The position numbers and the translations under genes are program-made. Shown here one piece after another: positions 12,994 through 34,055 of a DNA stretch of 64,000 nt. Within the stretch, counting starts at the first letter, position 1. Each line of letters starts with the position of its first letter. The DNA lies in NCBI GenBank assembly GCA_963664395.2, contig OY761159.2, positions 2,144,001 to 2,208,000 of the forward strand, in the 5' to 3' direction. A model generated the notes under the pieces. The model searched no databases. It was not told the DNA's origin and saw only the letters and a program-made list of their open reading frames with translations. Source of the DNA: Candidatus Binatia bacterium (lineage in GTDB: Bacteria; Desulfobacterota; Binatia; Bin18).

Positions 12994-14409
12994 ATGACGG
13001 ATATGCGACACATTCCGACACGTCTCTCTCGCCGCTTGATCCGCTTTGGCGTTATCGGGCTCAGCCTTTGCCTACTGCTTGGGCTTCCGAGCTGCGCCGT
13101 CGCCCCTCTTGCTGACAGCACCCTTGAACCACGCCGCTTAGGCCGAGAATTACCACCGGCTCACGCCTCCCCTGAATCAGAATCGGCGCCTCCTGCCTTC
13201 ACCGAACCTACCGGCGGCCTGACGCTCCGCGCCACGCTTGCGGCGGCCTTACTCAACAGCCCGGCGCTGGCCGCCTTTTCCTGGGAGGCGCGCGCCCGAG
13301 AAGCCAGAGCCATACAGGCCGGCCGGCCCCCGAATCCAGTACTCGAGCTTAAAGTGGAAGAGTTTGGCGGCGGTGGCGACCGCACGGCGTTTGATGGTGC
13401 AGACACCACCGTCCGGCTCGGCCAATTGTTTGAACTCGGCGGCAAGCGGGCAAAACGTCAGCGGGTGGCAACGCTCGAACGGGACTTGGCGGCCTGGGAT
13501 TACGAAACCCACCGGCTCAATGTTCTCACCACCGTTGCCAAAGCGTTTGTCGCGGTGCTTGCGACGCAGAGGCGAGTCAGCCTGGCGGAAGAACAGCTGG
13601 GAATGGCAGAAGAAGCCCTCCAAACCGTAGCCGTTCAGATCAAGGCCGGGGCAGTATCGATAGCGGAAGAGGCCCGCGCACGGGTCGCGTTAGCGCGTAG
13701 CCAGGTTGACCTTGCACGACGCAAACGGGAACAGACTGCTGCCCAGCTTCGGCTGGCCGCAACCTGGGGCAGTACGACCGTTACGTTCTCGGCGGTTACC
13801 GGCGACTTGGAGAGCATTATCCCGCCTCCATCTGCTGACGATCTCCTCCCGCATCTCAGCCACAACCCGGACGTTGCCCGTTGGGGCGTAGAAAAAGAAC
13901 AGCACCACGCCGTTCTCGAGCTAGAGCAGGCGCGCCAGATTCCCGACGTCGAGGTGGATGCAGGCGTGCGGTACATTAACGCAGACAAGACTGCCGCTCT
14001 GGTCTTTGAGGCCAACGTGCCGCTCATGCTGTTTGATCAGAATCGAGGCGGTATACAAGAAGCTTCTGCCCGTCTGGCGAAGGTCAACGCGGAACAACGC
14101 GCGGCTGAGGTCCAAATTCGGGTCGCTTTGGCTGCCGCCCATCAATCGCTCTTCTCCGCCTTCGAGCAAGTCACCGCCCTGCGAGATACTATCATTCCTC
14201 AAGCCCGCTCCGCCTTTGAGGAAGTGAACCGAGCATATCGGCGCGGGGGGCTTCGTTATAGGGACGTCTTAGATGTCTGGCAGACGCTTTTTGAACTGCG
14301 CGGACAATATGTCGAGGCTCTCGCCAGCTACCACACCGCGGCGGCGGACGTGGAACGCCTGATTGCCGAGCCGCTTGATGCACTCGACCACATAGACGAG
14401 ACTGACTGA
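12994..14409 (+). CDS. czcC: Heavy-metal RND efflux outer-membrane factor (CzcC/TolC family)
   Basis: Lipoprotein signal, QAGRPPNP, GQLFELGGKRAKR and FDQNRG. Confidence 0.85.
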   Translation: MTDMRHIPTRLSRRLIRFGVIGLSLCLLLGLPSCAVAPLADSTLEPRRLGRELPPAHASPESESAPPAFTEPTGGLTLRATLAAALLNSPALAAFSWEARAREARAIQAGRPPNPVLELKVEEFGGGGDRTAFDGADTTVRLGQLFELGGKRAKRQRVATLERDLAAWDYETHRLNVLTTVAKAFVAVLATQRRVSLAEEQLGMAEEALQTVAVQIKAGAVSIAEEARARVALARSQVDLARRKREQTAAQLRLAATWGSTTVTFSAVTGDLESIIPPPSADDLLPHLSHNPDVARWGVEKEQHHAVLELEQARQIPDVEVDAGVRYINADKTAALVFEANVPLMLFDQNRGGIQEASARLAKVNAEQRAAEVQIRVALAAAHQSLFSAFEQVTALRDTIIPQARSAFEEVNRAYRRGGLRYRDVLDVWQTLFELRGQYVEALASYHTAAADVERLIAEPLDALDHIDETD

Positions 14410-14410
14410 T

Positions 14411-15364
14411 ATGAAGGCCGACGCCCCGTATAGTTCAGTGCTGCTCGTGCTTGGCGCTCTGCTGCTTACGCTCTTGTTTGCCCGTCAGGAAGCACAGGGC
14501 CTCGCACCTGACGATCACGCTGCGGAGCAGGAACACGATGAAGGTCTTGTGCAGCTCTCCCCTGAAGAACTCACAGAATTCGGTATCGAAATCGATCGCG
14601 CCCAGCCAGGAACGATTACACGTACGGTTGAGACGCCAGGCGAAGTGCGGCTGAACGGAGAACAGCTGGCGCATATCGTCCCGCGCTTTTCCGGCATCGC
14701 AACCGCCGTCTATAAAAAGACCGGCGATACGGTTCGCGCCGGTGAAGTCCTCGCGATTGTCGAAAGTAGCCACAGCTTGGCCTCGTATGACCTCAAAACA
14801 CTCATAGCGGGAACCGTCATTGAGAGACATATTACACCCGGCGAGGCAGTCACCCGAGAGACGCAGGCGTTTGTGATTGCCAGCCTGACAAGCGTGTGGG
14901 TCAATCTGAGCGTGTACCAGAAAGACCTCCCGGCCGTTCATGTCGGCCAGCCAGTACGGCTGTCAATGGGTCATGCATTGCCCGAAACGGACGGAAAAAT
15001 CTCGTACGTCTCACCGATAGTCGATAAGGAAACGCGTACGGCGACCGCACGGGTAGTCCTGTCTAACCCCCAGAAACGCTGGCGGCCTGGCATGTTTGTT
15101 ACCGGCCGGATCGTCGTGGAACGCACGAAAGTGCCGCTGGCCGTGCCCCGCACGGCACTCCAGACAATAGCCGACCAGACCGTGGTGTTTGTCGAAACGG
15201 ACGAGGGTTTTCAACCGCGAGCCGTGACGACCGGACGCGCCGATGACGATCTGGTGGAAATCCGGATGGGTCTGGCGCCAGGCGAGCGCTACGTCAGCCG
15301 TGGAGGCTTCACACTGAAAGCGGAACTGTCCCGTGAGCAGTTCGGCGACGGCCACGGTCACTAA
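14411..15364 (+). CDS. czcB: Heavy-metal RND efflux periplasmic adaptor (CzcB family)
   Basis: His/acidic N-terminal patch, VDKETRTATARV, WRPGMFV and a GHGH tail. Confidence 0.85.
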   Translation: MKADAPYSSVLLVLGALLLTLLFARQEAQGLAPDDHAAEQEHDEGLVQLSPEELTEFGIEIDRAQPGTITRTVETPGEVRLNGEQLAHIVPRFSGIATAVYKKTGDTVRAGEVLAIVESSHSLASYDLKTLIAGTVIERHITPGEAVTRETQAFVIASLTSVWVNLSVYQKDLPAVHVGQPVRLSMGHALPETDGKISYVSPIVDKETRTATARVVLSNPQKRWRPGMFVTGRIVVERTKVPLAVPRTALQTIADQTVVFVETDEGFQPRAVTTGRADDDLVEIRMGLAPGERYVSRGGFTLKAELSREQFGDGHGH

Positions 15365-19014: not shown

Positions 19015-19632
19015 ATGACAGGCTATGCTGAAGTTCCCCGGCTCGGTATCGGCGGACCAGTCGGCTCGGGGAAGACAGAGCTGATTGAACACGTGGTGCC
19101 GTATCTTCAGGGGCAGGGAAAACAGCTCGCGGTTATCACCAATGACATTCTGACCCAGGAAGACGCCCAACGCCTGCGCAGTCGCGGCTTCCTCTCCCCG
19201 GACCGCATTGTCGGCGTTGAGACCGGCGCCTGCCCACACACGGTTATTCGCGAAGATCCGACCATGAATCTGGAAGCAGTCCGCCGGCTGGAGGAACAGT
19301 TCCCTGCCCTGGATCTCATTATCTTAGAGAGTGGCGGGGACAATCTGGCGTCAACGTATTCTCCGGAACTCGCCGACGCCTTTGTCTTTGTCATCGACGT
19401 TGCCGGGGGCGACGACATTCCACGCAAGCGGGGGCTGGGGATTACCCGCTCAGACCTGCTGGTTATCAACAAGGTCGATCTTGCTCCGCATGTCGGAGCA
19501 AATATTGAGGTGATGACCCAGGATGCACGTCAGGCGCGTGGTACGCGGCCCGTTCTTCTCACCAACTGTAAAACAGGGATGGGGATTACGGACGTGGGCG
19601 AGTGGATTGAACGCGAATTACTCTTTGTCTAG
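19015..19632 (+). CDS. ureG: Urease accessory GTPase UreG
   Basis: [23 protein letters not shown] and NKVD. Confidence 0.95.
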
Positions 19633-19645
19633 TGCTCTCTCCCCC

Positions 19646-20596
19646 ATGCCAGTGTCTGCGCATGACGCCTCCCGGCCGGGCCTCTCTCTTGATGCCGCCT
19701 TCTGGCCGCGCTCGTTTCAGGCCTATCTGTCTGACACACTCGATCAACGCCCGGCTGGTTCGGCTGGCAAGTCCGGCGCGTGCAAGCTGACCTTTGCAGC
19801 AGAGTCAGGAAAAACCCATCTTCAGCGCTCGTTTGTTTCCCATCCTTTCCATCTGACCCGTCCCTGGTATTTGGACCCGGCCTTGCCCGGTATGGCGGTG
19901 GTCTACGTCCAAACACCCGCGGGCGGACTAATTCAGGGCGATCGGGCAACGCTCCGGTTCGATCTGGGCGACGCGGCCCAAGTCCATATTACCAATCAGG
20001 CCGCAGAGAAGATTCACTCTATGACTGCCAACTGCGCACTGCAAAGCGTCTCGTTTGTTTTGGACGCAGGGGCCTATGCGGAGTATTGTCCCGAGCCCAT
20101 TATTCTCTTTCCCCGCGCGCGTTTCGGCCAGCAACTCCACGTCCAACTCGGCCGACAGGCGACCTTTTTCTTTTCCGAGATCTTTCTCATTCGTGGGGAC
20201 ATGACGCGAGAACCGTTTGAGGCACTCTCTACCAGCCTGAGCGTCACTGATGCTGCCGGCGCCCTACTCATACGAGAACACGGAGTCGTCCTCCCACTCC
20301 AGCAGCGCCTCACTGGCCCTGGCGTCCTGGGTCGCTATCACGTCTGGGGCCAAGCCGTCCTCGTTGGCCGATCGGTGACCGAGAGCTGGGCACGAGAAAT
20401 CCAAGGAAAGCTTCAAGAGGAATTGTTGCCTGACACAGCTCTCGTGGCCGGCACGACTGTCCTCCCAGAGGAATGCGGAATCTGCGTGAAAGTAGCAGGG
20501 ACAAGCGTTCCAGCGGTTCGACGGGTATTACGCCGAGCCTGGCACGGGCTGTGCCGGCGCCATCTCGGTGTTCCCGCACCAGACCTACCAAAATGA
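19646..20596 (+). CDS. ureD: Urease accessory protein UreD
   Basis: TPAGGLIQGD, ITNQAAEKIH and EYCPEPIILF. Confidence 0.9.
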   Translation: MPVSAHDASRPGLSLDAAFWPRSFQAYLSDTLDQRPAGSAGKSGACKLTFAAESGKTHLQRSFVSHPFHLTRPWYLDPALPGMAVVYVQTPAGGLIQGDRATLRFDLGDAAQVHITNQAAEKIHSMTANCALQSVSFVLDAGAYAEYCPEPIILFPRARFGQQLHVQLGRQATFFFSEIFLIRGDMTREPFEALSTSLSVTDAAGALLIREHGVVLPLQQRLTGPGVLGRYHVWGQAVLVGRSVTESWAREIQGKLQEELLPDTALVAGTTVLPEECGICVKVAGTSVPAVRRVLRRAWHGLCRRHLGVPAPDLPK

Positions 20597-20597
20597 G

Positions 20598-20659
20598 GAA
20601 CGGAGGCCACGCATGCTGCGCATCAGTCATCGTCTCGGGAATGTCCATCAGGATTCCGA
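20598..20659 (+). repeat. Displaced RBS and 5' end of ureE (left island boundary)
   Basis: ATG 20613 encodes MLRISHRLGNVHQDS, an imperfect copy of 31507-31568 (MLRVSHHLGNIHQDS). Confidence 0.85.
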
Positions 20660-20679: not shown

Positions 20680-23193
20680 ATGAACGAAGCCACCGCCCGT
20701 ATCAAAATCAACAAGCTGCTCGAAGCAGCCGGCTGGGGTTTCTTTGCCGACGGCGACCAACCTGCCAACATCCGTCTTGAGCCAAGCGTTACGATAAAGG
20801 CGTCCGATCTCGACGCGCTTGGTAACGACTTCGATAAAACCGCTAAGGGCTTTATTGACTTTCTGCTGCTCGATACCAAGGGCTTCCCGCTCATCGTGCT
20901 GGAGGCCAAAGCCGAGGACAGGAATCCCCTGGTCGGCAAGGAGCAGGCGCGTAAATACGCTCGCTCGCTGAACTGCCGTTTCGTTATGCTCTCCAACGGA
21001 AATCTGCACTACTTCTGGGACCTGGAGCGCGGTAATCCCTACCTCATCACTACCTTTCCCACACCGGACTCGGTGGCCGGCTATGCGAGTGCCTCACCCG
21101 ACCCGCAGCGTCTGGTCAATGAACAGGTCAACGACGACTATATCGTCCTCACCCAGCGTCTCGGCTACGCATCCGAGGCAGCCTGGAAGAACGAAGACGA
21201 GCGCCCCGGCTTCATCCAGGCTAACAGACTTCGTTTTTTGCGGCCCTATCAACTGAGAGCCGTATACGCCCTGCAACGCGCGGTACACCAGGGCAAAGAC
21301 CGCTTTCTGTTCGAGATGGCGACCGGCACCGGCAAGACGCTCACCGCCGCAGCGGTCATCAGGCTATTCCTGCGCTCTGCCAACGCTCGGCGCGTGTTGT
21401 TTCTGGTGGACCGCCTGGAACTGGAGGAGCAGGCCAGAAAGGTTTTTGCGGCCCTGCTGTCCGCGGACTTCCAGACGGTCATTTACAAGGAGAAGCGTGA
21501 CGACTGGCGGCGGGCCGAGATCGTCGTCAGTACCGTTCAATCTCTGCTGTTCAATAACAAATACCAACAGCTTTTCTCGCCGACGGACTTTGACTTGGTG
21601 ATCTCCGACGAGGCGCACCGCTCGATTGGCGGCAATGCTCGGGCGGTATTCGACTATTTCGTTGGCTACAAGCTCGGTCTGACCGCCACGCCCCGCGATT
21701 ACTTACGGAGCTTCGACCAGACCAAGCGCACGACGCGGGACCCGCGTGAGGCCGAGCGTCGGCTGCTGCTGGACACCTATCGTACTTTCGGCTGCGAGAG
21801 CGGACAGCCAACCTTTCGCTACTCACTGCTCGACGGTGTCAGGGAGGGCTTTCTGATCAACCCCACGGTGGTGGACGCGCGGACGGAAGTCACCACCCAA
21901 CTCCTCTCCGAAGAGGGCTTTGTTGTGTCGTTCACCGAGGGCAGCGGTGAGGATCAGCAGGAAGCGTACAAGCAGCGCGAGTTCGAGAAACGCTTCTTTT
22001 CCGAAGCCACCAACCAACTTTTCTGTAAGACTTTTCTTGAGAACGCGCTACGCGACCCGATCAGCGGAGAGATCGGCAAATCCATTATCTTTGCCGTCAG
22101 CCAGCACCACGCGGCCAGGCTGACGCAAATCCTCAACCAGATGACCGAGCGTATGTTTCCCGGCAAGTACCAGTCCGATTTCGCCGTACAGGTTACCTCG
22201 CAGATACCCGACGCCCAGCAGTTCACCATCAACTTTGCCAACAACAACCTGATCGGCTCGGGCAACTTCCTGCCCGACTACAAGACCGGCAAGGCCCGTA
22301 TCTGCGTCACGGTCGGCATGATGACGACCGGGTACGACTGCACCGATATCCTGAATCTCGGCATGTTCCGGCCTATCTTCTCACCCACCGATTTCGTCCA
22401 GATCAAGGGACGGGGCACGCGCAAGCACGATTTTCGCGACCAACTTTTCGACATCGGCCTCAAGGACGCCGTCACCCAGCCACACAAAACCGCTTTCAAG
22501 CTGTTCGACTTCTTCGGCAACTGCGAATACTTCGAGGACGAGTTCAACTACGACGAAGTCCTCAAGCTGCCTCGACCTCGGGCTCAGGGGAACGGCGACG
22601 GCCCGCAACCCTACGGAACTTACGAGCATCTGGGCCGCGACATCCTCGAAGAAATTGCAGAAGAAACCATCGGCCTGGAGGGGATGAGGATAGACCGGAT
22701 GTTCTTCGACCGGTTCGCGGACGCAGTGCGACAAGACGAGACCATCGCGCAGGCCGTCGAAGCCGGCCAGTGGGACCGCGTTATGGACTACATCAACCGC
22801 GAAGTCTTCGACAAACCCGAGGAGTACTATACTCTTGCCAAACTGCGCAAAGCTGCCGCCGTGGACCGCCGCCTGACCCTGCGTGAAATTCTGGAAAAGG
22901 TTTTTGACATCATCCCGCGCTTCAAACCCAAGGACGAACTGCTGGAAGAAGAATTCACCAAGTTTGTCGCCGACCATACCCCGCCACGGGCTGACTCCAT
23001 TGCGGCTATCAAGGCCTACTTCAAAGCATACGCCACCGACGGCTACACTCGTGACATCATCGACACCCGGCAGTTCTCCAGGCTGGCCACCTCTCCGGTC
23101 TTTTCCATTGGCGACTATCGGGCCGTGCCGGAGAAATATCGCGCGATCATTCCCGAGTACGTGAAGGACTACGTGTCGTTGAACCAGTTCTGA
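20680..23193 (+). CDS. hsdR: Type I restriction endonuclease subunit R
   Basis: IDFLL..LEAK nuclease motif, MATGTGKT, DEAH, GLTATP and QIKGRGTR. Confidence 0.9.
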   Translation: MNEATARIKINKLLEAAGWGFFADGDQPANIRLEPSVTIKASDLDALGNDFDKTAKGFIDFLLLDTKGFPLIVLEAKAEDRNPLVGKEQARKYARSLNCRFVMLSNGNLHYFWDLERGNPYLITTFPTPDSVAGYASASPDPQRLVNEQVNDDYIVLTQRLGYASEAAWKNEDERPGFIQANRLRFLRPYQLRAVYALQRAVHQGKDRFLFEMATGTGKTLTAAAVIRLFLRSANARRVLFLVDRLELEEQARKVFAALLSADFQTVIYKEKRDDWRRAEIVVSTVQSLLFNNKYQQLFSPTDFDLVISDEAHRSIGGNARAVFDYFVGYKLGLTATPRDYLRSFDQTKRTTRDPREAERRLLLDTYRTFGCESGQPTFRYSLLDGVREGFLINPTVVDARTEVTTQLLSEEGFVVSFTEGSGEDQQEAYKQREFEKRFFSEATNQLFCKTFLENALRDPISGEIGKSIIFAVSQHHAARLTQILNQMTERMFPGKYQSDFAVQVTSQIPDAQQFTINFANNNLIGSGNFLPDYKTGKARICVTVGMMTTGYDCTDILNLGMFRPIFSPTDFVQIKGRGTRKHDFRDQLFDIGLKDAVTQPHKTAFKLFDFFGNCEYFEDEFNYDEVLKLPRPRAQGNGDGPQPYGTYEHLGRDILEEIAEETIGLEGMRIDRMFFDRFADAVRQDETIAQAVEAGQWDRVMDYINREVFDKPEEYYTLAKLRKAAAVDRRLTLREILEKVFDIIPRFKPKDELLEEEFTKFVADHTPPRADSIAAIKAYFKAYATDGYTRDIIDTRQFSRLATSPVFSIGDYRAVPEKYRAIIPEYVKDYVSLNQF

Positions 23194-23415
23194 ACTGTGA
23201 TTGAATGGGATTTTTGGGATTGATGGGATGCAGAAGGAGCATAAGTTTCGGAGTTGACCGGCCAGATCATCGGGTGTGCTATGACGGTGCATTCCGCGCT
23301 GGGCAATGGGTTTCAGAACGAGTCACCAACAAGAAGTTCAACCAAAAAAATCAACGCAATCCCAAAATCCCCTAAATCCTGTTAATCCTACCAATCCCAC
23401 AAATCACAGTTCAGA
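23189..23415 (+). mobile_element. Inverted-repeat-bounded mini-element carrying an internally deleted GxxExxY gene
   Basis: Perfect 14-bp IR TCTGAACTGTGATT/AATCACAGTTCAGA, subterminal GGGAT/ATCC repeats, and internal ELTGQIIGCAMTVHSALGNGFQ. Confidence 0.7.
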
Positions 23416-23417
23416 CT

Positions 23418-26009
23418 ATGTTAGACACCACCACCAAACGCCGGATTGACACCGCCCGCGACCTCCTCGTCGGCAAGGTGCCTGACCCCAAGAGTCAGGT
23501 CGAACAGATTACCATTGCGCTCATCTACAAGTTCATGGATGACATTGACGCCGAGAGCGAAGAGTTCGGCGGCACGCGTACCTTCTTCGCCGATGACTTC
23601 GCCCGTTACGGCTGGGCCAAACTGATGTACTCCGGCCTGGGCGGAAACGAGATTCTCAATCTTTACGCCGAGGCCATTACCCGAATGCCGGAGAACCCCG
23701 GTATCCCGCCGCTGTTCCGCGATATTTTCAAGAACGCCTATCTGCCCTACCGCGACCCCGAGACCCTGCGCGGCTTTCTCAAGGTGATTGACGAGTTTAC
23801 CTACGACCACTCCGAACGCCTGGGTGATGCCTTCGAGTATCTGCTGTCCGTACTCGGCTCTCAGGGCGATGCCGGGCAGTTCCGCACCCCACGGCACATC
23901 ATCGACTTTATCGTGGCCGTCATTGACCCCAAAAAGAATGAAACCATCCTCGACCCGGCCTGCGGTACCGCCGGATTTCTGATCTCCTCGTACAAACACA
24001 TCCTGAAGGCAAACACCGACGCCGACGGTCACAGCACTTTGACCCCGGACGAAAGGGGCCGATTGGCAACCAATTTTCAGGGTTACGACATCTCGCCCGA
24101 CATGGTGCGCCTGTCGCTGGTCAATATGTATCTGCACGGCTTTGTCGCCCCGCATATCTTCGAGTACGACGCCCTGACCAGCCAGGAGCGTTGGAACGAG
24201 TACGCCGACGTGATTCTGGCCAACCCGCCGTTCATGTCGCCCAAAGGCGGCATCCGGCCCCACAATCACTTCTCGGTGCAGTCCAAACGCAGCGAAGTAC
24301 TGTTTGTAGACTACATGGCCGAGCATCTGACGCCCAACGGCCGCGCTGGCATCATCGTGCCCGAGGGCATCATTTTTCAGAGCCAGAACGCTTACAAGCA
24401 ACTGCGCAAGATGCTGATAGAGGACTATCTGGTGGCGGTGGTATCGCTGCCGGCGGGTGTGTTCCAACCCTACTCCGGCGTCAAGACTTCGATTCTGATT
24501 CTGGACAAGGTGTTAGCCAAGAAAGCCGACCGCATCGCCTTCTTCAAGGTAGAAAACGACGGCTTCGGCCTGGGGGCGCAACGCCGCCCGATTGACAGGA
24601 ATGACTTGCCGCAGGTGCAAAAGGAGCTGGGCGAATATCTTGGAAGGCTGCGGGCTGGCGAATCGGTGGACGATTTCCAGCCAGCGTTGACGGACCGCGT
24701 AGCCGAACCAGGGGCGGAGTACACGAAGAGCGAATCGACACACGGGCTCATCGCCGAGAAGGAGAAGATTGCTGCGAGTGGAGAGTATAATCTGAGCGGG
24801 GAGCGGTATCGGGAGAATCGGGTACGCAATCACGCGTTCCCTTTAGTTTCCATTGGAGATTCAGAACTTTTCCGTGTCGAAAGTGGTGGTACGCCAAAAT
24901 CCGATGTGAAGGAATACTGGAGTGGCAGCATTCCTTGGGCGACGTTGGTTGATTTGCCTGCAACCAATTTTATCACCGAGATTAGGGCTACTCAGCGTAC
25001 CATTACCGAACTTGGCTTAAATAAGTCCTCAGCGAAGCTGATTCCAGAAAATTCTGTCATCGTTTCGACCCGGGCGACTATTGGGAGAATCGCCATCAAC
25101 CGTATACCACTAGCGACCAACCAGGGGTTCAAGAACGTCGTTATCAAGGACCTGAACAAAGTTCTCCCCGAATATGTCGCACTCACGTTGACAAAGCTTG
25201 TGCCCACGATGGAAGCCCAGGCGAGCGGTGGCACCTTCAAAGAGATTTCCAAGTCGAGGTTCTGTGGGCTACAAATCCCCCTACCGCCGCTGGAAGTGCA
25301 GCGGGAAATTGTGGCCGAGATTGAAGGCTACCAAAAAGTGATTGACGGGGCGCGGATGGTAGTGGAGAACTATCGGCCTCATATTGTAGTTGATCCTGAG
25401 TGGCCGATGATTCCGCTTAGTGATGCGTGTGAGTTAATCATGGACGGGACTCACTTTTCTCCGAAGAATATGGAACAAGGCGCACGGCTGTACCTCACCT
25501 CCAAGAATGTTAGAGAAAACCACCTTGACCTTTCCAAAGTCAGTTACGTGACTGAAGCAGACCACAAATCCATTTATGCGCGCTGCCCAGTTCAAAAGGG
25601 AGATGTTCTCTACGTCAAGGATGGAGCGAACACGGGTCTTACGGCCATAAACACTCTGGATGAAAAATTCTCACTACTCTCAAGTGTCGCAGTCTTACGG
25701 GGAAAGCGGAATTACCTTGATAACCAATTCTTGTGTCTCTTTCTGAATACCCCCGACGGTCGGAGCAGGTTACTTTCCATGATGTCAGGCGTAGCTATCA
25801 GAAGGCTGACGTTGACGAAGATCAATCAGGCTCAGATTCCTTTGCCACCTATTCAAGACCAGAAGAGAATAGTTCAGGAGATCGAAGCCGAGCAAGCTGC
25901 CGTCGACGCCAACCGTGAACTGATTGAGCGATTTGAGAAGAAGATTCAGGCGGCGGTGGGGCGGGTGTGGGGAGAAACCGAAGTCGTAGGTCGGACTAGC
26001 TCGGCGTAA
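23418..26009 (+). CDS. hsdM: Type I RM fused methyltransferase-specificity subunit (HsdM-HsdS)
   Basis: GQFRTP, DPACGTAGFL and NPPF, followed by two TRD-CR units (IPLPPLEVQREIV, IPLPPIQDQKRIV). Confidence 0.9.
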   Translation: MLDTTTKRRIDTARDLLVGKVPDPKSQVEQITIALIYKFMDDIDAESEEFGGTRTFFADDFARYGWAKLMYSGLGGNEILNLYAEAITRMPENPGIPPLFRDIFKNAYLPYRDPETLRGFLKVIDEFTYDHSERLGDAFEYLLSVLGSQGDAGQFRTPRHIIDFIVAVIDPKKNETILDPACGTAGFLISSYKHILKANTDADGHSTLTPDERGRLATNFQGYDISPDMVRLSLVNMYLHGFVAPHIFEYDALTSQERWNEYADVILANPPFMSPKGGIRPHNHFSVQSKRSEVLFVDYMAEHLTPNGRAGIIVPEGIIFQSQNAYKQLRKMLIEDYLVAVVSLPAGVFQPYSGVKTSILILDKVLAKKADRIAFFKVENDGFGLGAQRRPIDRNDLPQVQKELGEYLGRLRAGESVDDFQPALTDRVAEPGAEYTKSESTHGLIAEKEKIAASGEYNLSGERYRENRVRNHAFPLVSIGDSELFRVESGGTPKSDVKEYWSGSIPWATLVDLPATNFITEIRATQRTITELGLNKSSAKLIPENSVIVSTRATIGRIAINRIPLATNQGFKNVVIKDLNKVLPEYVALTLTKLVPTMEAQASGGTFKEISKSRFCGLQIPLPPLEVQREIVAEIEGYQKVIDGARMVVENYRPHIVVDPEWPMIPLSDACELIMDGTHFSPKNMEQGARLYLTSKNVRENHLDLSKVSYVTEADHKSIYARCPVQKGDVLYVKDGANTGLTAINTLDEKFSLLSSVAVLRGKRNYLDNQFLCLFLNTPDGRSRLLSMMSGVAIRRLTLTKINQAQIPLPPIQDQKRIVQEIEAEQAAVDANRELIERFEKKIQAAVGRVWGETEVVGRTSSA

Positions 26010-26056
26010 TCCGACAAGGGAGGTGGGGTGGGTGAAGGCTGAAGTGGAGACGGGGG

Positions 26057-26260
26057 ATGCCAAAAGTTAGAGACGCGATTAGGCTCATAGAGCGAGAGGG
26101 CTGGGAATTGGTCCGTACCCGTGGAAGTCACAGGCAATATCGCCACTCCAAAAAATCGGGAACCGTTACGATAGCAGGCCGAATGAGTAAGGACCTTGCG
26201 CCTAAAACTTGGGCGAGTATTCTCAAACAAGCAGGAATAGACAGAGGAGAATCGCTGTGA
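26057..26260 (+). CDS. hicA: HicA-family toxin
   Basis: EREGWELVRTRGSHRQYRH..KSGTVTI...SILKQAG. Confidence 0.92.
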   Translation: MPKVRDAIRLIEREGWELVRTRGSHRQYRHSKKSGTVTIAGRMSKDLAPKTWASILKQAGIDRGESL

Positions 26261-26487
26261 AATACGCCATCCTCATTGAAAGAACCGACAACGGCTACTC
26301 TGCCTATGTGCCCGATTTACCCGGTTGTATCGCCGCCGCAGATACAAAAACCGCAGTGGAAGAACTGATCCGCGAAGCTATCAGCCTCCACCTCGAATCC
26401 CTCCACGAACACGGCGACCCAATTCCTGAACCGCACACAACCGCTGCTCTCATTGAGGTCCAACCTTTCTCCGATTCGTTTGTTTGA
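26257..26487 (+). CDS. hicB: HicB-family antitoxin
   Basis: GTG start overlaps the hicA stop; YSAYVPDLPGCIA...EAISLHLE...PIPEP. Confidence 0.9.
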   Translation: MKYAILIERTDNGYSAYVPDLPGCIAAADTKTAVEELIREAISLHLESLHEHGDPIPEPHTTAALIEVQPFSDSFV

Positions 26488-26526
26488 GATGGCGGGACGG
26501 GCGCCAGTCTTACGGTCCTGCTGGGG

Positions 26527-26560
26527 AGGTTGGGTGACGCCTTCGGCTCACCCAACCTAC
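26527..26560 (-). repeat. GTAG-family REP-like palindrome
   Basis: Reverse strand reads GTAGGTTGGGTGAGCCGAAGGCGTCACCCAACCT. Confidence 0.75.
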
Positions 26561-26565
26561 GGGCT

Positions 26566-26703
26566 AAAATTCCGATGTCGAATCTTGAAACCCAAGGTGC
26601 CATTGTCGCAGAAATTGAAGCCAAACAATCGCTAGTCAACGCCAACCGTGAACTGCTTGAACGATTTGAGAAGAAGATTCGGGCGGCGGGGGGGCGGAGA
26701 TAA
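26566..26703 (+). pseudogene. Orphan hsdS 3' conserved-region fragment (copy 2)
   Basis: KIPMSNLETQGAIVAEIEAKQSLVNANRELLERFEKKIRAAGGR. Confidence 0.85.
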
Positions 26704-26761
26704 GACAAAGGGCGCGGACTAACCTCAAACCGGATTATTTTGGGAAAGCGGGCAGGAACGC

Positions 26762-28468
26762 CTACGAATCCGCAGACGAGGATTTTTGCTTCTCGTAATC
26801 ATCCAAGGCTGCCACAATACGATCTAACAATTTACCGAATCCTGAAAAATCAATCTTGTCGGCACTTGGTCTAACTACCTTTTCGGCAAAAACGGTCTTT
26901 CCGTACGTATCGTCTGTGTTGTGTTTCTTCGAGGGGTCAAACTTCTTTCCATCTATAGGAATTTTGAGCAACTTTGGGCCAAACAAATCTTCTATGCAGG
27001 ATTTTGAATCCGTGCCGTTCTCTGGTGTCTTTACGAGATAAAGATTCTTGTGAAGATGGTAGAATAATTCCGAAACTTCGTTTGTTATATTAAGGCTATA
27101 ATTTTCTTTTACAACGCTGAAGATACTCTTAGCGCCGTCGTCGTTGTCGGTTAGGATGATCACCGGATGGGCAAGCGGTGCATGTTTGAAGGAGGCGATG
27201 ATGATTTTGTACTTTGCGATAAGGCGGCTGATATCACCTGTACCACCACCAAGCTGAAGGACTTGGTAAATTGTTTGCGAGTATCTCATGAAGCGGACAG
27301 TACTTGAGAAGCTGCCGTTTACAAGCTCACCTAATTGTGGATGGTAATCCGTTAGTTTTTTGATTGCTGCACGTAGATAAACGATATCGGTTTTTCCTTC
27401 TGTCACAATCAAGGGTTTTTCTAACGCCACAAAGTGCTTATAGAAGAGAAATTTTTTGTACAACATCCGAGCCGCGGTTGGTGTTTTCTTTTTTTCAACT
27501 TCCTCCCTTAGATCGGAGCGATCCTTTATGTAATGTATGTGACTGAGAATGCCCTCAATTTTATTTAAGCCTTTCACGGAGGTGTCAGGGGTGGATACAT
27601 AATAGCTCCCGGTCGAGAACAGCTTATGACAAATCGCGCGTGCGGTCCGATAGTATTCCGATCTGATGTTGACTTTTTCGTTGACTATTAAACCGGTCGT
27701 CACTTGGCGCGACCCACGCCACTGCATCCGTGTTTTGCTGGCGTTTATTTTGAAGCCGGCTCTATGAATCTCCTTTACAAGTTGCGAACCAAGTTCCCAG
27801 GCCGAGAGTCTTTCAGGAATTGGTTTTGCTAAAGCTGTAGGAAAATCCTTACGGTTCGTCGAAAAGGTGATGTCATCAGCATAGCGCGAATAAGTGCACT
27901 TGTTTTTCTTGGCGAATCGAGCAAGACGCACATCCAGTATATGTCCAAGCAAGTTGGATATTATCGGGGAACATGGACTGCCCTGCGGCAATTCGTTCTT
28001 ATGACACGCAATTTGCGCAATGACTGTCGCGACTTTCTCATTTAGCTCAAAACGTTTGTCTTTTATGAAGAAGCCTCGAACACGTCCGAAATTGAATGAA
28101 GGGAAAAAGTCTTGGAGATCCAGGTTCAGTACATAGCGGCGACGTTTATGCACAGAAGCATTGGTGAAGATTGAGCAGGAGCGCGCAAAGCCATGAGCGA
28201 GCGGATGGTGGGTGGGGCCGGTTTTCTCAAATTCGGCGACGCATCTGTAGAGTACGTCCGCCAATCGTCTCTGTAGCATTTTCAACCGACGTTCGGGCGC
28301 GTTGATTAGCCGCTTCCCACCGTTGTGTTTTGGGATTTCAAAGGAGTGGTACTTTTCTGCTTCTGGCAACTGATACAGTAGATATGAAACGGTCTTAGGT
28401 TGTACACCGAGAATATGACCGACATCCTTCAATGTTCGGGCTGCCCGCAGCTTCTCCAAGTCGGTCAT
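26762..28468 (-). CDS. Retron Ec67-like reverse transcriptase fused to a TOPRIM nuclease domain
   Basis: NASVH (region X), DLQDFFPS, LPQGSPCSP, YSRYADD and QVTTGL; C-terminal IVTEGKTD...LTDND. Confidence 0.93.
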   Translation of the reverse strand: MTDLEKLRAARTLKDVGHILGVQPKTVSYLLYQLPEAEKYHSFEIPKHNGGKRLINAPERRLKMLQRRLADVLYRCVAEFEKTGPTHHPLAHGFARSCSIFTNASVHKRRRYVLNLDLQDFFPSFNFGRVRGFFIKDKRFELNEKVATVIAQIACHKNELPQGSPCSPIISNLLGHILDVRLARFAKKNKCTYSRYADDITFSTNRKDFPTALAKPIPERLSAWELGSQLVKEIHRAGFKINASKTRMQWRGSRQVTTGLIVNEKVNIRSEYYRTARAICHKLFSTGSYYVSTPDTSVKGLNKIEGILSHIHYIKDRSDLREEVEKKKTPTAARMLYKKFLFYKHFVALEKPLIVTEGKTDIVYLRAAIKKLTDYHPQLGELVNGSFSSTVRFMRYSQTIYQVLQLGGGTGDISRLIAKYKIIIASFKHAPLAHPVIILTDNDDGAKSIFSVVKENYSLNITNEVSELFYHLHKNLYLVKTPENGTDSKSCIEDLFGPKLLKIPIDGKKFDPSKKHNTDDTYGKTVFAEKVVRPSADKIDFSGFGKLLDRIVAALDDYEKQKSSSADS

Positions 28469-28487
28469 AGACCAGTTCTCAAGAGAA

Positions 28488-28634
28488 GGCTTACAGGCAC
28501 TCCTATGCGAAACGAAACCCTAGAGAACGATATCTAACGATATCTAGCGTTGTTCAAGGATGACCAGGGAGCACGCGCGCCCTGACATTCTGTCTTATAT
28601 CGCGATTGCGCGATAACAAGTCTGCCTGTAAGCC
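28488..28634 (-). ncRNA. Retron msr-msd ncRNA (Ec67-like)
   Basis: Perfect 12-bp a1/a2 IR GGCTTACAGGCA/TGCCTGTAAGCC, candidate branching G at 28622, and internal hairpins; directly upstream of the RT. Confidence 0.88.
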
Positions 28635-28690
28635 AGCGCACACCGTGGCATATCGGTGCTGGAATAGCAAGAAAAATAGAAAAGGTCGTC

Positions 28691-28774
28691 GAGATTGAAG
28701 TTGACAAGCCCTGGTCAACGCTAACCGCGAACTGATTAAGCAATTTGAGGAGAAGGTTCGGACGAGTGGGGGGG
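28691..28774 (+). pseudogene. Orphan hsdS 3' conserved-region fragment (copy 3, degenerate)
   Basis: EIEV..QALVNANRELIKQFEEKVR with an indel. Confidence 0.75.
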
Positions 28775-28830
28775 CATAGCGAGGGCAAGGTCAATCGGGT
28801 AGAATTTTCACTTACGAGGAGGGGAAAGTC

Positions 28831-29028
28831 ATGTCTGAAAGAGCCGAGACAGAAAGGGTCTCAGATGATTATCTGAGGACATTAGAACGTGTCAAAAAGC
28901 AATACCAGCAATACGTGGAAGTGAGCGAGCTTTACAAATTGCCTGTCCAAAAGGAAGAGGAAATTATCCAATATCAATCTCCAAGTCCAGAGCACCCTCT
29001 GACGACAAATACAATTCGTATCAAGTAA
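28831..29028 (+). CDS. Hypothetical 65-aa protein
   Basis: Strong RBS (GAGGAGG); ends 11 nt upstream of the protease gene. Confidence 0.65.
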   Translation: MSERAETERVSDDYLRTLERVKKQYQQYVEVSELYKLPVQKEEEIIQYQSPSPEHPLTTNTIRIK

Positions 29029-29039
29029 GTGAAATAGTC

Positions 29040-30019
29040 ATGGCTTCATGGAGCGAACTCCTAGAACTGCTAAAAGCTCAAAGAGACCCTGTCTGGCTTG
29101 ATAGCAAACTAAAAGAACATTTGAGCGCCATCTCAGGGCGTCGTAACGGTGCCGCCGTCATCTTTTACGCCTCGGCTTTTCTGCAAAAAACGCCGACAAG
29201 GTGGCCATCACCAGAGAAGATATCAATGGCTTCATGAACGCGCTTTACGAAGCACCGACCGATAGAGGTCTCGTATTGATCCTTCATACTCCTGGTGGCG
29301 ACCCGAATGCTGTTGAAAGTATCGTTGAGTATCTTCATTCCAAATTCAATTATCTTGAGGTCATTGTTCCATACCTGGCTATGTCCGGCGGCGCGATGAT
29401 AAGTCTTGCGAGCGATCAACTAACGCTCGGTAAGCAGAGCCAACTTGGGCCGATTGACCCTCAACTTGTCATTGGTAACAAAACACATTCGGCCAGGGCG
29501 ATTCAGGAAGGATTTAATAAGGCAAGAGAGGATATTGAAAGCGATACGAAATTAGCGCATCTCTGGGCACCTATTTTACAAAATATGGGACCTTCGCTTT
29601 TCTTGGAAGCTGAGAAAGCTTTGTCATACAGCAAAGAGTTGGTGGCAAACTGGCTCATGAAAAGGATGCTCAAAGGTATACGCGACGAGACAGAAAGAAA
29701 GAGAAAAGCCGATACCATTGCGGCATATTTTAATGCTGAAGATATTCCTGACTACGGCCAAGTGCATGTCCATGGCCAGAGGATTGGAGCGGTCAAGCTT
29801 AGGGAACTTGGGCTTAATCTGCAATTTTTTGAGGATGACCAAGCTCTGCAGAATGATATTTTAACGGCATATCACTTGATGACCTTGATTTTTGAAATGA
29901 CGACTTCCCTCAAGTTCATTGCCAGCGATAGAGGAAAAATGTGGGTCAAACAAGAACAGCAGATTCTTGCCCCAGCATCCCCTCCTGTCCCTCAACAACC
30001 TCCCTCAATTATCCCCTGA
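29040..30019 (+). pseudogene. SDH/ClpP-like serine protease, frameshifted at an A6 tract
   Basis: LILHTPGGD, AMSGGAMI and QLGPIDPQL. The N-terminal part joins the main frame if A6 at 29185-29190 is read as A7. Confidence 0.8.
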
Positions 30020-30784
30020 TTCCCAGACCTTGTCTGAAAACTGGACGATATGTTCACCTTCCCGTAATGGCTCGCCGGCGAGGCTGTCGAGCCAGTTCAT
30101 ACCCTCGACATAAACATCGTCATAACGGGCATCTTTTACGGGGTTAATCAGTTTGTGATCTTTGCGTTCTCTGTTTTTATACCGCGCTCGTAATGCCCGC
30201 ATTCGCTCTTTGAATTGCTTCTTTTTCTTGGCCGATAAGCCGTCCATTCTCAGCGGTGTCGGAACAGGCTCATTCATTGAGATGTCCTGGGTGACGACTG
30301 TAAAGTCCAAAAACTCATTAGGCGCGGCAGATAACATGGGTTCCGTCCTATAAACGTAATGCAGCAGGCTCTGCGTGTCTTGCCCGAATCGCCGCACATC
30401 TTCTTTCAGTCCCGAAGTTATCGCAAATGAGAGTTGGTTCCCTATCTCTTCTAACTGCTCTTCATCACTCAGAGACCAACGAACCCAATCCTGCCTCTCT
30501 TCATAGTTGCTCTCAAAAGACCGTCTCTCCGCGTCGATAGCGCTGAGTGCAGGCTCAATACGCGCGTAAACCGATTGGGACCACGGACCGAATTTGTAAA
30601 ATTGCTACCCTGTCCCGGTAAAGGTAACGCCGTTGTTTCGTTTCGCATGGAAAAGGTCGGCCAAATACACATACTTAATCAGGTGAATTGGTCCGAGCTG
30701 GCGGTCTAAGAATTCATCCTGCTCTCCAGCAACCAGCAACGCATACTGGAGCAGCAAGTCAACACGGGAGGGGGCCACTGGCAT
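30005..30784 (-). pseudogene. Panacea/SocA (DUF4065)-like antitoxin with one in-frame amber stop
   Basis: MPVAPSRVDLLLQYALL...IHLIKYVYLAD...TFTGTG*QFYKFGPWS...YVYRTEPM; TAG at 30605-30607. Confidence 0.7.
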
Positions 30785-31072
30785 TACTTCGACTCGAAGG
30801 GCTGAGAATCAGGTCTATTTACGGTTCTCCTGGGACAGCAAGCATACCGGAATTGTCGGAGCGCGCCTACCCGTATGTGGGCTCCTCCCATATAAGATTG
30901 AAGCCGAACGAACTCTTGTCACCGCTAATCGTGAACTGATTGAACGATTTGAGAAGAAAATTCGGGAAGCGATTGGGAGGGTGTGGGGAGAGGCCGAAGT
31001 CGTAGGTCGGACTAGCTCGGCGTAATCCGACAAGGGAGGTGGGGTGGGGAGAGGCTGAAGCGGAGACGGGGG

Positions 31073-31276
31073 ATGTCAAAAGTTAGAGACGCGATTAGGC
31101 TCATAGAGCGAGAGGGCTGGGAATTGGTCCGTACCCGTGGAAGTCACAGGCAATATCGCCACTCCAAAAAATCGGGAACCGTTACGATAGCAGGCCGAAT
31201 GAGTAAGGACCTTGCGCCTAAAACTTGGGCGAGTATTCTCAAACAAGCAGGAATAGACAGAGGAGAATCGCTGTGA
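31073..31276 (+). CDS. hicA: HicA-family toxin (duplicate)
   Basis: Differs from 26057-26260 only at residue 2. Confidence 0.92.
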   Translation: MSKVRDAIRLIEREGWELVRTRGSHRQYRHSKKSGTVTIAGRMSKDLAPKTWASILKQAGIDRGESL

Positions 31277-31479
31277 AATACGCCATCCTCATTGAAAGAA
31301 CCGACAACGGCTACTCTGCCTATGTGCCCGATTTACCCGGTTGTATCGCCGCCGCAGATACAAAAACCGCAGTGGAAGAACTGATCCGCGAAGCTATCAG
31401 CCTCCACCTCGAATCCCTCCACGAACACGGCGACCCAATTCCTGAACCGCACACAACCGCTACCCTCATTGAGGTCTGA
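31273..31479 (+). CDS. hicB: HicB-family antitoxin (duplicate)
   Basis: Near-identical to 26257-26487, with an earlier stop. Confidence 0.9.
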   Translation: MKYAILIERTDNGYSAYVPDLPGCIAAADTKTAVEELIREAISLHLESLHEHGDPIPEPHTTATLIEV

Positions 31480-31521
31480 CCCATCTGCGATTCGTCTGTT
31501 TGAGCAGAACGGAGTGCAAAT

Positions 31522-32673
31522 ATGCTGCGCGTCAGTCATCATCTCGGGAATATTCACCAGGATTCCGACCTCGCCGCTCAGGTCACGCGCTGGGAGCACG
31601 CGCACCAACTGGAAGAAGTGACCCTGAACGAACGGGAGGCGCAGAAGAGTCGGCTTCGCCTACAGACCTCGACCGGCCAAGAGCTGGGGCTCGTCTTGCC
31701 CCGTGGCACAGAAATCACGGATGGGGACGTCTTTGCCTTCACCGATAGGGAAGGCGGCCTGTTAGTCCACCTCGCTCTTCAGGAGGTCATGGTGCTGACG
31801 CTTCGCCCAGGACTGCCCTTGGGCAAGCAACACCACTGGCTGGTGCGCCTGGGCCATGTGCTGGGCAACCAGCACTGGCCGGTCGCGAGCGTCAACGAGG
31901 CGGTCCTGGTGCCGGTCAGCCTCGACCGGGCGGTGATGGAAACCGTTCTGCGTACCCATCATCTCCTGGATCAATTTACGGTTCGGTATGAGCGGCGTTC
32001 CTGGCCAAAAGCAGCCTTGCAGCTGACCGACTCCTTTTTTCCCTCCGGCACAGTCACCCTGTCGCACGGCCTGGAAACCTTTCTCGGTGGCCAGTCCGCG
32101 GAGATCGACCTGTCTCAGCTCCTTCAAGATTATCTCGAAAGGAAAATTGCTCCCTGTGATCTGGTTGCCTATGCGCACGCGTATCGGGCCGCAGAAGAGG
32201 GAGACGTTGAGCGTTTGCATCAGCTCGACCGCTACTTGAATGTTTCGCTCCTTCCGCAAGAACTGCGGCAGGGCTCCGCACGTTCAGGCAGGGCGACGCT
32301 GGAAACACTGCGGCGCTTAGTCGAGGAGCCCCTCTTCCAGGCATTTCTCGCTGGCATAGAGGCGGGCAAGAGCAGCGGTCATATCTCCATTTGCCTGGGT
32401 CTCTTACACGTTCTGTGGCGTATCCCCCAACGCAGAGGCGGCGCTATGTTGCTCTACACCTTCATGGTGAACTTTCTTGGCGCAGCCATCCGTTTAGGCT
32501 GTCTTGGGCATCGGGAAGCACAGAGGTTGCTCATCAACTTCCGACCTCATTTGATTCCACTCGCAGATCAAGCGCTAGAGAGCCCACTCGAAGAGATCGG
32601 AACTTTTGTTCCGCTCGCGGATATCCGCGCGATGCAACATGCCCACCTGTCTGTCCGACTTTTTAGTAGCTAG
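31522..32673 (+). CDS. ureEF: Fused urease accessory protein UreE-UreF
   Basis: UreE part: KSRLRL..GQELGL.LPRG, LGHVLGNQH. UreF part: LQLTDSFFPSG..SHGLE and terminal RLFSS. Confidence 0.85.
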   Translation: MLRVSHHLGNIHQDSDLAAQVTRWEHAHQLEEVTLNEREAQKSRLRLQTSTGQELGLVLPRGTEITDGDVFAFTDREGGLLVHLALQEVMVLTLRPGLPLGKQHHWLVRLGHVLGNQHWPVASVNEAVLVPVSLDRAVMETVLRTHHLLDQFTVRYERRSWPKAALQLTDSFFPSGTVTLSHGLETFLGGQSAEIDLSQLLQDYLERKIAPCDLVAYAHAYRAAEEGDVERLHQLDRYLNVSLLPQELRQGSARSGRATLETLRRLVEEPLFQAFLAGIEAGKSSGHISICLGLLHVLWRIPQRRGGAMLLYTFMVNFLGAAIRLGCLGHREAQRLLINFRPHLIPLADQALESPLEEIGTFVPLADIRAMQHAHLSVRLFSS

Positions 32674-32848: not shown

Positions 32849-32884
32849 CGGGATATGCGGGATATGCGGGATATGCGGGATATG
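32849..32884 (+). repeat. Tandem repeat (CGGGATATG)x4
   Basis: Four perfect 9-bp units just before the aminotransferase start. Confidence 0.95.
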
Positions 32885-32885
32885 A

Positions 32886-34055
32886 ATGATGCTGCGTGAA
32901 AGTCGGCGGATGCGGGAGGTACAGTCGCCGATCATTCCGGTGATTGGCGAATTAATCCGCGCGAACCCCGGTACGGTTTCTCTGGGCCAAGGGGTCGCGT
33001 ACTACGGCCCGCCGCCTGAGGCGCTGGAAGCGGTCCGCCGGTTTCAGGCTGAACCGGATAACCATAAATACAAACCCGTCCAAGGCATTGACCCGCTCTT
33101 AGAGATCATTCGCCACAAGCTGTTGGAGGAGAACGGTATCGCGCTGAATGATGCGCAGCGGATCGTCGTGACGGCCGGGGGCAATATGGCGTTCATGAAT
33201 GCGTTGCTGGCAATCGCCGACCCCGGTGATCAGATTATTTTGCAACTGCCCTATTACTTCAACCACGAGATGGCAATTAGCATGGTCAATTGTGAGGCGG
33301 TGTGTGTACCGACCGACGAGCACTACCAACTTCAACTCGATGCGATCAGCAACGCGATTACGGATCGTACGCGCGCCATTGTGACCGTGTCGCCAAACAA
33401 CCCGGCCGGTGTGGTGTATGCCGAATCAGACTTGCGTGCGGTCAATGATCTCTGTCGCGAGACCGGCCTCTATCACATCAGTGACGAAGCGTATGAGTAT
33501 TTCACGTACGATGGCGCAACCCATTTCTCGCCGGGATCAATCCCGGACAGCAGCGAGTACACAATCTCCCTGTACTCGCTGTCCAAAGCGTACGGCTTTG
33601 CGAGCTGGCGCATCGGCTGGATGGTCGCGCCCGAACACCTGTATACGGCGATCAAAAAAGCCCAGGATACGATCCTGATCTGCCCGCCGGTCGTCTCGCA
33701 ATACGCCGCGGCGGCCGCGATGCAAGTCGGGTCGGCCTACTGTCGTGAAAAACTCAGGGCGATGACCGCGACACGCCGGGTCGTACAGAGCAGCCTGAAC
33801 GAGTTGAGTGATCTGCTCACGCTGCCTCGGTCCGACGGCGCGTTCTACTTCCTGCTGCGGGTGCACACAGATATGGATGCCATGACGTTGACTGAGCGGT
33901 TAATCCAAGAGCATCACGTCGCGGTGATTCCCAGTACGGCGTTCGGCGTAACCGAGGGGTGCTATCTGCGCGTAGCCTACGGCGCGCTGAACGAAGAGGT
34001 GGCCGGCGAGGCCGGCGGGCGGCTCTCGCGTGGACTGCGGCATATTCTTTTGTAA
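32886..34055 (+). CDS. PLP-dependent aminotransferase class I/II
   Basis: SPNNPAG, ISDEAYE and SLSKAYGFASWRIG. Confidence 0.92.
   Translation: MMLRESRRMREVQSPIIPVIGELIRANPGTVSLGQGVAYYGPPPEALEAVRRFQAEPDNHKYKPVQGIDPLLEIIRHKLLEENGIALNDAQRIVVTAGGNMAFMNALLAIADPGDQIILQLPYYFNHEMAISMVNCEAVCVPTDEHYQLQLDAISNAITDRTRAIVTVSPNNPAGVVYAESDLRAVNDLCRETGLYHISDEAYEYFTYDGATHFSPGSIPDSSEYTISLYSLSKAYGFASWRIGWMVAPEHLYTAIKKAQDTILICPPVVSQYAAAAAMQVGSAYCREKLRAMTATRRVVQSSLNELSDLLTLPRSDGAFYFLLRVHTDMDAMTLTERLIQEHHVAVIPSTAFGVTEGCYLRVAYGALNEEVAGEAGGRLSRGLRHILL

Follow-up and report, generated by a model that had tools for sequence, protein, structure and literature searches.

We analysed a 64,000-nucleotide (nt) stretch of the genome of a Candidatus Binatia bacterium (GenBank assembly GCA_963664395.2, contig OY761159.2, positions 2,144,001 to 2,208,000 of the forward strand), referred to below as 'the window', in whose numbering positions are given. 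Between ureD (19523–20596) and ureE/F (31522–32673) it carries an island of 10.9 kb that comprises a Type I restriction-modification (R-M) locus and, downstream of it, a series of defence and toxin-antitoxin genes. The specificity gene hsdS of this locus is fused to hsdM, and the stretch encoding the C-terminal conserved region of HsdS, which we call the tail, is found both at the end of this live gene and as three detached copies ('orphan tails') between the downstream modules. The features from the live gene to the right end of the island are listed below (G and L numbers denote genomes and loci; aa, amino acids; ORF, open reading frame; REP, repetitive extragenic palindromic):

23418–26009, + strand: live fused hsdM-hsdS gene, 863 aa (N6_Mtase, E = 8e-48; Methylase_S, E = 2e-35, in two stretches)
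25842–25975, + strand: tail t1, the C-terminal conserved region within the live gene (LPPIQ...GRVWGE)
25976–26045, + strand: REP-like element, which gives the live gene its last nine codons and stop
26057–26260, + strand: hicA-1 (HicA_toxin, PF07927, E = 3e-19)
26257–26487, + strand: hicB-1 (HicB_lk_antitox, E = 2e-13)
26488–26566, + strand: another REP-like element, ending directly at the left edge of t2
26567–26703, + strand: orphan tail t2, the full conserved region in an open frame with its own stop
26762–28468, − strand: retron RT-Toprim of type I-C (PADLOC RT-Toprim_I-C, E = 4.9e-228, 756 bits, residues 1–565)
28469–28678, − strand: presumed retron non-coding RNA, conserved with G016
28679–28776, + strand: orphan tail t3, a degenerate chimera with a 1-nt deletion and stops
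28831–29028, + strand: small ORF of 65 aa, 85–89% identical in G007 and G022 at the same position
29040–30019, + strand: SDH/ClpP-like serine protease gene, frameshifted (PF01972, E = 1.2e-19 on 29201–30019)
30008–30784, − strand: Panacea-like (SocA-like) gene with an in-frame TAG at 30605–30607
30894–30991, + strand: orphan tail t4, 5'-truncated with its first third gone, followed by a REP-like copy at 30992–31060
31073–31479, + strand: hicA-2 and hicB-2, colinear with G006 through ureE

A repeat search of the window recovered the HsdS C-terminal conserved region as four direct copies on the + strand, one live and three orphan, with an 87-nt repeat unit at 25878–25964, 26611–26697, 28690–28776 and 30894–30980; ungapped identity to the first copy is 84% (26611), 61% (28690) and 77% (30894). 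An nhmmer profile built from the four tails recovers all of them at E-values of 5.5e-43 to 3.5e-31. Searched by tblastn with the live 55-aa tail, the whole 5.04-Mb genome gave these four as its only tail matches, the additional matches being one to the central conserved region of the live gene itself (E = 0.02) and another that arose by chance (E = 1.6), and in a genome-wide blastn search of the tail all four of the four matches again lay within the locus. The initial annotation of this DNA had claimed four hsdS tails in the same orientation, each with a cargo unit behind it, and both statements are borne out, the first by all four of these searches and the second by the cargo assignments (HicAB behind t1; a retron behind t2; the small ORF, protease and Panacea-like gene behind t3; HicAB again behind t4). 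Every copy is homologous to the region that is conserved in an intact HsdS, and an open gene with target recognition domains (TRDs) is present at t1 alone: no TRD was found upstream of t2, t3 or t4, the nearest ORF ending 79–110 nt away (t2 starts 79 nt past hicB).

Cargo identities were established with Pfam and PADLOC on the ten ORF segments of the island. The two HicAB pairs are almost exact duplicates, with 100% identity over 26080–26439 (360 nt), and the window is 91% identical to G006 over 658 nt (31041–31695), with HicAB-2 running on into ureE. The retron reverse transcriptase (RT; RVT_1, E = 8e-21) shares 80% aa identity with that of G016 and is fused to a Toprim domain, the arrangement that places it in type I-C, which we take to be the Ec67-like type. 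The putative RNA region beside it is highly conserved with G016 and has a fold z-score of −2.19; an Rfam scan of 25500–32000 at E ≤ 1 gave no match, and the retron RNA therefore stays presumptive.

The third module has defects in both of its larger genes. The protease is interrupted by a frameshift at an A-run near 29185–29200 and forms a single 326-aa ORF in G007 and G022; a sequencing error at the A-run is possible. The Panacea-like gene is 88–91% identical at the nt level to those of G027 and G007, and with its stop read as X it scores 23.2 bits against PF13274 (E = 1.4e-4), below the gathering cut-off of 25.7. The 65-aa ORF has no family match in Pfam or PADLOC; in each of the three genomes with the SDH protease it stands ahead of that gene, and it is probably a functional partner of the enzyme. 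Directly downstream of the intact Panacea gene in locus L033 of G027 lies a gene (oriented coordinates 13872–14642, minus strand) for a 256-aa protein without a Pfam match, a candidate toxin partner of Panacea; the Panacea-like gene of the window has lost such a partner and converges on the protease instead.

Thirteen loci with orthologous hsdR and hsdM-S genes, 12 of them from the same genus and the other from a different family within the order, were compared with the window. The island lies at ureD/ureE in the window, G002, G006 and G014, and at rpe/PD40-Smr-RlpA in G008, G016, G011, G018, G027, G007 and G022. The slot behind hsdM-S is variable among them, being filled by DUF3644 with a REase-like gene, Schlafen/AlbA, TIR, AAA+DUF3226, AAA+DUF4435, SIR2, Vsr+Dcm+HATPase, Tle1-like, NYN, PIN/VapBC or HicA. 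With the nhmmer profile of the tails, orphans were found in G016 (one), G027 (one), G007 (three) and G037 (one) and weakly in G014, and none in G002, G006, G011, G018, G013, G017 or G022. An extra tail in G008 was not counted as an orphan, since it probably belongs to the live gene itself and follows a broken TRD2.

Two of the orphan-led segments of the window correspond to segments that stand behind a live tail in another genome. The interval 26602–28689 (most of t2, the retron and its RNA region) is colinear with the live tail and retron of G016 over 2133 nt at 85% identity, and 28691–30429 (t3, the small ORF, the protease and the 3' end of the Panacea-like gene) with the live tail and cargo of G022 over 1752 nt at 86%. 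HicAB in G006 lies 1.6 kb behind the live tail, so that direct attachment is only partly matched for that module. Colinearity of orphan tail plus cargo with live tail plus cargo elsewhere indicates that each orphan tail would be the fossil of an hsdS end that formerly stood directly ahead of that cargo. Only G016 provided a relevant match (one of 24) when genome contigs were searched for the exact 17-nt junction of tail and retron; the rest look like chance matches in unrelated taxa.

Several of the tails are themselves mosaics. The left part of t3 corresponds to an orphan beside the retron in G016, and its right part to the live tail of G022 that leads into the small ORF and protease; the order in G016 is live tail, retron, an orphan that shares the left edge of t3, and then a different cargo (a TIR gene). 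Compared with the live tail of G016, t2 is ~50% identical on its left and ~88% identical from about position +45 onward into the retron. Up to 25972, G002 matches tail t1 together with TRD2 at 92.6% identity; from there on the cargo differs. Identity between the two tail+HicAB copies is graded, ~78% over 25880–25959 and ~93% over 25960–26079, with sharp outer edges. The break at 25972 and this graded identity point to crossovers that would have fallen at or within the tail.

The fused hsdM-S family occurs in many phyla at 57–80% identity, and we therein compared the own tail of each of 80 intact genes (79 genomes) with its 20-kb locus, over both flanks and both strands; 13 of 93 loci, G007 with its three orphans by nhmmer among them, were left out since their gene was not intact by a length filter. 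Extra tails are present in 13 of the 79 genomes, which include Latescibacterota, Verrucomicrobia and Proteobacteria, and the remaining 66 have the live copy alone. All 24 extra-tail matches lie downstream of the gene and on the same strand, some of them weak (E = 1e-3 to 4e-4 in L040). The left edges of orphan tails fall at seven or more positions, all inside the conserved region, and TRD2 is kept by none. At L106 a 129-nt direct repeat, ~95% identical and with sharp edges, brackets the cargo, and a SIR2 gene follows the live tail at L094 and an orphan at L083 across an identical junction. The initial annotation had expected orphan tails to vary in number among relatives and to bound different cargo, and both expectations held: between zero and three were found, always downstream and on the same strand, bounding TIR, SIR2, AAA+DUF3226, DUF3644, retron, HicAB and protease modules.

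It had further proposed that gain of cargo is coupled to a change of TRD2. This did not hold: three groups of genes share TRD2 (70–91% identity) and differ in their first cargo, and in the one pair with the same first cargo (SIR2) the TRD2s are unrelated (12% identity), so that no co-variation of TRD2 with cargo was found. TRD1, TRD2 and cargo are sorted independently of one another, which argues against any link between specificity change and cargo gain.

The reading that we consider probable is a displacement array: homology-guided recombination at the hsdS tail would have built it, and it would not be a site-specific integron. This reading draws directly on the repeats, the colinearity with live tail plus cargo, the chimeric tails and the recurrence in other phyla. 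The last ~130 bases of hsdS, its distal conserved region, are common to otherwise divergent alleles and could for that reason act as a portable homology arm. Modules of tail plus cargo that once lay directly behind a live hsdS would have been recombined in by crossovers inside the tail, the donor being either circular DNA with a partial tail or the product of pairing between non-allelic tails, and every such event would leave between modules an orphan tail truncated at its 5' end. A dedicated recombinase would not be involved, the tails serving as scars and as substrates for later homologous exchange or deletion, and occasional illegitimate joins may add to the process. We prefer to see the tails as hsdS fragments that accompany the cargo or are displaced by it, a scar and homology arm in one, and not as a pad recognized by a recombinase. 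For the route itself we infer a RecA-type homologous recombination pathway, circular intermediates and an order of events. ComEC and DprA, both of them present, were considered as a sign of competence and set aside, having also matched in 10 and 11 of 14 control genomes, respectively (DprA above the cut-off in 10).

A number of observations weigh against this reading. The tails are now 61–84% identical, with longest shared runs of ~20–35 nt, and would therefore be poor RecA substrates unless they were more alike at the time of the events; nor does homologous recombination alone explain the first orphan at a locus. Some junctions look illegitimate, such as the REP-like element abutting t2 and, in G007, a tiny orphan that follows the live tail after only 160 nt and without intervening cargo. 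Between tail positions +40 and +50, the tails on the left of the retron match between genomes, as do those on its right, which suggests that one ancestral tail-retron-tail block may have been passed on by outer crossovers. Two independent integrations of circles, which we had considered for the retron flanks, were rejected, the inner 10 nt of both flanking tails being conserved between genomes. A search of genome contigs with the retron RT found close relatives (68–72%) in three Latescibacterota; two of these retrons lie 3–3.9 kb behind an hsdM-S tail, where the tails of the window as query detected no flanking orphan, and the Latescibacterota retrons give no independent cassette context. No excised circle or tail-to-tail deletion product was found in assembled contigs of public runs. 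Finally, the genome is metagenome-assembled, and the order t1-HicAB-t2...t4-HicAB-ureE crosses the 360-nt exact repeat, which short-read contigs cannot phase.

We give limited credence to a stronger form of the same idea, in which tail plus cargo constitutes an integrase-free pool of cassettes, small circles looping out by recombination between tails and re-entering, by a single crossover in a tail, any genome with this widely transferred hsdM-S family. If that were true, the conserved end of a restriction gene would be a docking sequence for defence genes that works across phyla.

Simple gene debris is a further contender, and we think it unlikely: here the orphans would be leftovers of complete hsdS genes or R-M systems after ordinary deletions, and the homology among tails would be irrelevant. 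In favour of decay, two of the three orphan-led modules carry broken genes, t3 is degenerate, and small deletions at microhomologies occur beside tails, as in a 78-nt difference between the window and G016 that is bounded by GAAAGGT repeats. Random deletion ends in a 2.6-kb gene would not, however, place all 24 of 24 orphans with their starts inside a conserved region of ~46 codons and none with TRD2; t2 begins only 79 nt past hicB; and the chimeric t2 and t3 together with the 95%-identical 129-nt repeat at L106 indicate exchange within tails.

A true cassette system, in which the tail would be the site of a recombinase encoded elsewhere (Xer-like or integron-like) that moves circles of tail plus cargo, we hold to be improbable. 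This bears on the proposal of the initial annotation that the tail is a recurrent landing site at which cargo accumulates like integron cassettes: a recurrent stacking point with no integrase stands, and an integron-like fixed site does not. In favour of a true cassette system, there is one tail per module in uniform orientation, the pattern recurs across phyla, and the contig graph of the likely source run permits a 5-kb circle (HicAB-t2-retron-t3-protease-Panacea-t4) in place of two HicAB copies. The homology of all tails also ends at one place, just past ..GRVWGE, with the stop codon in cargo-specific sequence; this constant right edge is explained by the end of coding constraint there, and the left edges fall at the several positions described above. 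As a test for a cis-acting DNA site, we calculated how probable it is that any two genes use an identical codon at a conserved residue; across the 80 genes this probability is 0.49–0.53 in the tail against 0.54 in hsdM, so that synonymous sites are not extra conserved in the tail. None of the 25 longest of the 57 inverted-repeat pairs in the window lies inside a tail, and L106 lacks the G-rich end of the tails, which is confined to Binatia alleles. Neither an integrase nor a recombinase family was found in the ten ORF segments of the island (Pfam, PADLOC) or among 30 cargo and flank proteins of relatives (Pfam), and no recombinase gene lies in or beside any scanned array.

As to the assembly, we compared the contigs of a public run that contains 98% of the sampled words of the stretch. 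They break at t1 (25937), at 26416–26445, at 30032–30061 and at 31023, and their depths are unequal (2.7 to 11.4). That the four-module array is an artefact in which strain variants were fused at the repeated tail+HicAB segment with its 360-nt exact repeat is nevertheless very unlikely, since one contig spans 26416–30061 with 0 differences and bridges t2, the retron, t3 and the protease, another spans 30032–31023 with no differences, all resolutions of the graph still need HicAB followed by t2 and t4 followed by HicAB, and similar arrays occur in the single-contig relatives G007 (three orphans) and G027 (one) and on a 4.9-Mb contig of G016 (one). Two further joints, each within a single contig and of 88% likeness with short sides, were seen and are not counted as evidence: 26565 to 30032 (X8), which skips t2-retron-t3-protease with one extra letter, and 25965 to 31046 (X10), which fits tail-HicAB without the REP-like element. 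The first is not a tail-to-tail product, and either may stem from other strains or organisms.

Among described processes, the C-terminal displacement of Rhs genes would be the closest to the displacement array that we favour. For Rhs arrays, Jackson et al. 2009 (PMC2935791) put forward homologous recombination with circular intermediates and describe partial cores of varying length ahead of displaced tips. The Rhs and contact-dependent inhibition (CDI) arrays share with the present one an intact gene followed by same-strand fragments of its conserved region that vary in length and each head a different module, the attachment of the same modules to intact genes elsewhere (here the retron in G016, the protease in G022 and, in part, HicAB), and the evolutionary decoupling of conserved and variable parts. 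Rhs displaces its own variable toxin tip with the immunity gene, whereas here separate, unrelated defence or toxin-antitoxin genes lie downstream; HsdS moreover retains its conserved tail as part of the protein, and the orphans are shorter (~50–135 nt). By this comparison the array would work like an Rhs/CDI displacement array without being a member of that class.

Insertion with long target duplication has been described for R-M genes (Furuta, Abe & Kobayashi 2010, PMC2853133). Its signature is direct repeats of >30 bp, no mobility gene and one copy of the repeat at the empty site, and the whole island has all three; the 87–135-nt tail repeats around the cargo mirror the 62-nt repeat of the island (see below). 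The authors required restriction and modification genes in the insert, whereas the inner inserts here are modules other than R-M, the target is the 3' end of the R-M gene itself, and the repeats are often chimeric.

With integrons the array shares a directional stack of promoter-poor modules, one recombination-prone element each, beside a fixed anchor gene. It differs in lacking IntI, attI or attC palindromes and any fixed point of crossover, and in carrying cargo on either strand with its own regulatory regions. Phase-variable Type I loci, such as pneumococcal SpnD39III, contain partial hsdS copies with TRDs, mostly inverted and often accompanied by a recombinase, and switch specificity. They too have partial hsdS genes near a live hsdS that recombine through conserved regions, whereas the copies described here are without TRDs, direct and separated by unrelated genes, and imply no change of specificity. 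PrrC in the prr locus is a known case of a defence gene linked to a Type I hsd locus. In Staphylococcus aureus, the Type I hsd genes of vSa-alpha and vSa-beta serve as anchors of defence islands, and the cargo beside them is exchanged among lineages through recombination (PMC12829572); the portion of that source at hand describes no orphan hsdS 3' ends between modules.

In our literature search, to which the supplement of the 2010 paper did not belong, we found no published description of orphan hsdS 3' ends between defence genes, the descriptions of partial copies being of phase-variable or solitary hsdS. Extra tails are present in about one-sixth of the genomes that carry the hsdM-S family, in several phyla. 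Defence islands cluster around restriction genes, yet little is understood of how they acquire genes in the absence of machinery from mobile elements. The locus offers a testable route for such gain, in which the conserved hsdS 3' end would serve as the common homology arm, and since each gain would leave a dated scar, the array could be read as a record of successive gains. Given the frequency of the pattern across phyla, orphan tails could also mark defence genes that have not been annotated, examples being the 65-aa ORF beside the protease and, in G027, the 256-aa gene adjoining Panacea. On this evidence, the shuffling of specificity domains is independent of that of cargo.

The features that lie outside the array of tails are:

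20598–20659, + strand: left copy of a 62-nt direct repeat, a remnant of the 5' end of ureE, 84% identical to the right copy
20680–23193, + strand: hsdR (Pfam ResIII, E = 2.8e-37, and HSDR_N; PADLOC REase_I, E = 6e-58)
23205–23385, + strand: internally deleted remnant of a PDDEXK_3 gene (PD-(D/E)XK, GxxExxY-type), between hsdR and hsdM-S
31507–31568, + strand: right copy of the 62-nt direct repeat, found by the repeat search, the true start of ureE

The whole island exemplifies insertion with long target duplication clearly: all five of five sister genomes that have the island elsewhere show the empty site, an uninterrupted ureD-ureE with a single copy of the 62-nt sequence. PADLOC assigned the fused hsdM-hsdS gene to both MTase_I and Specificity_I. 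The ORF pieces of the PDDEXK_3 remnant match, when compared by eye and unaligned, the N- and C-termini of a protein of L027 (G002) with an E-value of 1e-38 to PF13366. In G002, G016, G011 and G018 the PDDEXK_3 gene between hsdR and hsdM-S is intact, and other relatives have a HicB-like and HicA pair at this place.

REP-like hairpins stand at three module borders (25976–26045, 26488–26566 and 30992–31060), with the core GTAGGTCGGACTAGCTCGGCGTAATCCGAC. The element at 25976–26045 has 23 genome-wide matches, two of them the locus's own copies, the dispersed ones matching the core, and its copies also recur in the arrays of relatives. The element at 26488–26566 has four weak copies in its own genome and many in the arrays of relatives, in both orientations. 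The orphan t4 together with its REP-like copy is 83% identical to the orphan of G027.

The G-rich end of the Binatia tails (GGTGGGGCGGGTGTGGGG; 26680–26700 in the window) varies in length and is a long uninterrupted run of G in G002 (L027). Insertions of 9 and 16 nt in t2 were seen in contigs of two public runs, and slippage at the G-rich end alters the C-terminal residues of HsdS.

To the right of the island, UreE and UreF form one 383-aa ORF (31522–32673) in the window and two ORFs in five sister genomes, which could mean either that the two are fused or that there is an error. At 32849–32884, just upstream of an aminotransferase gene at 32886, CGGGATATG is present in four tandem copies.

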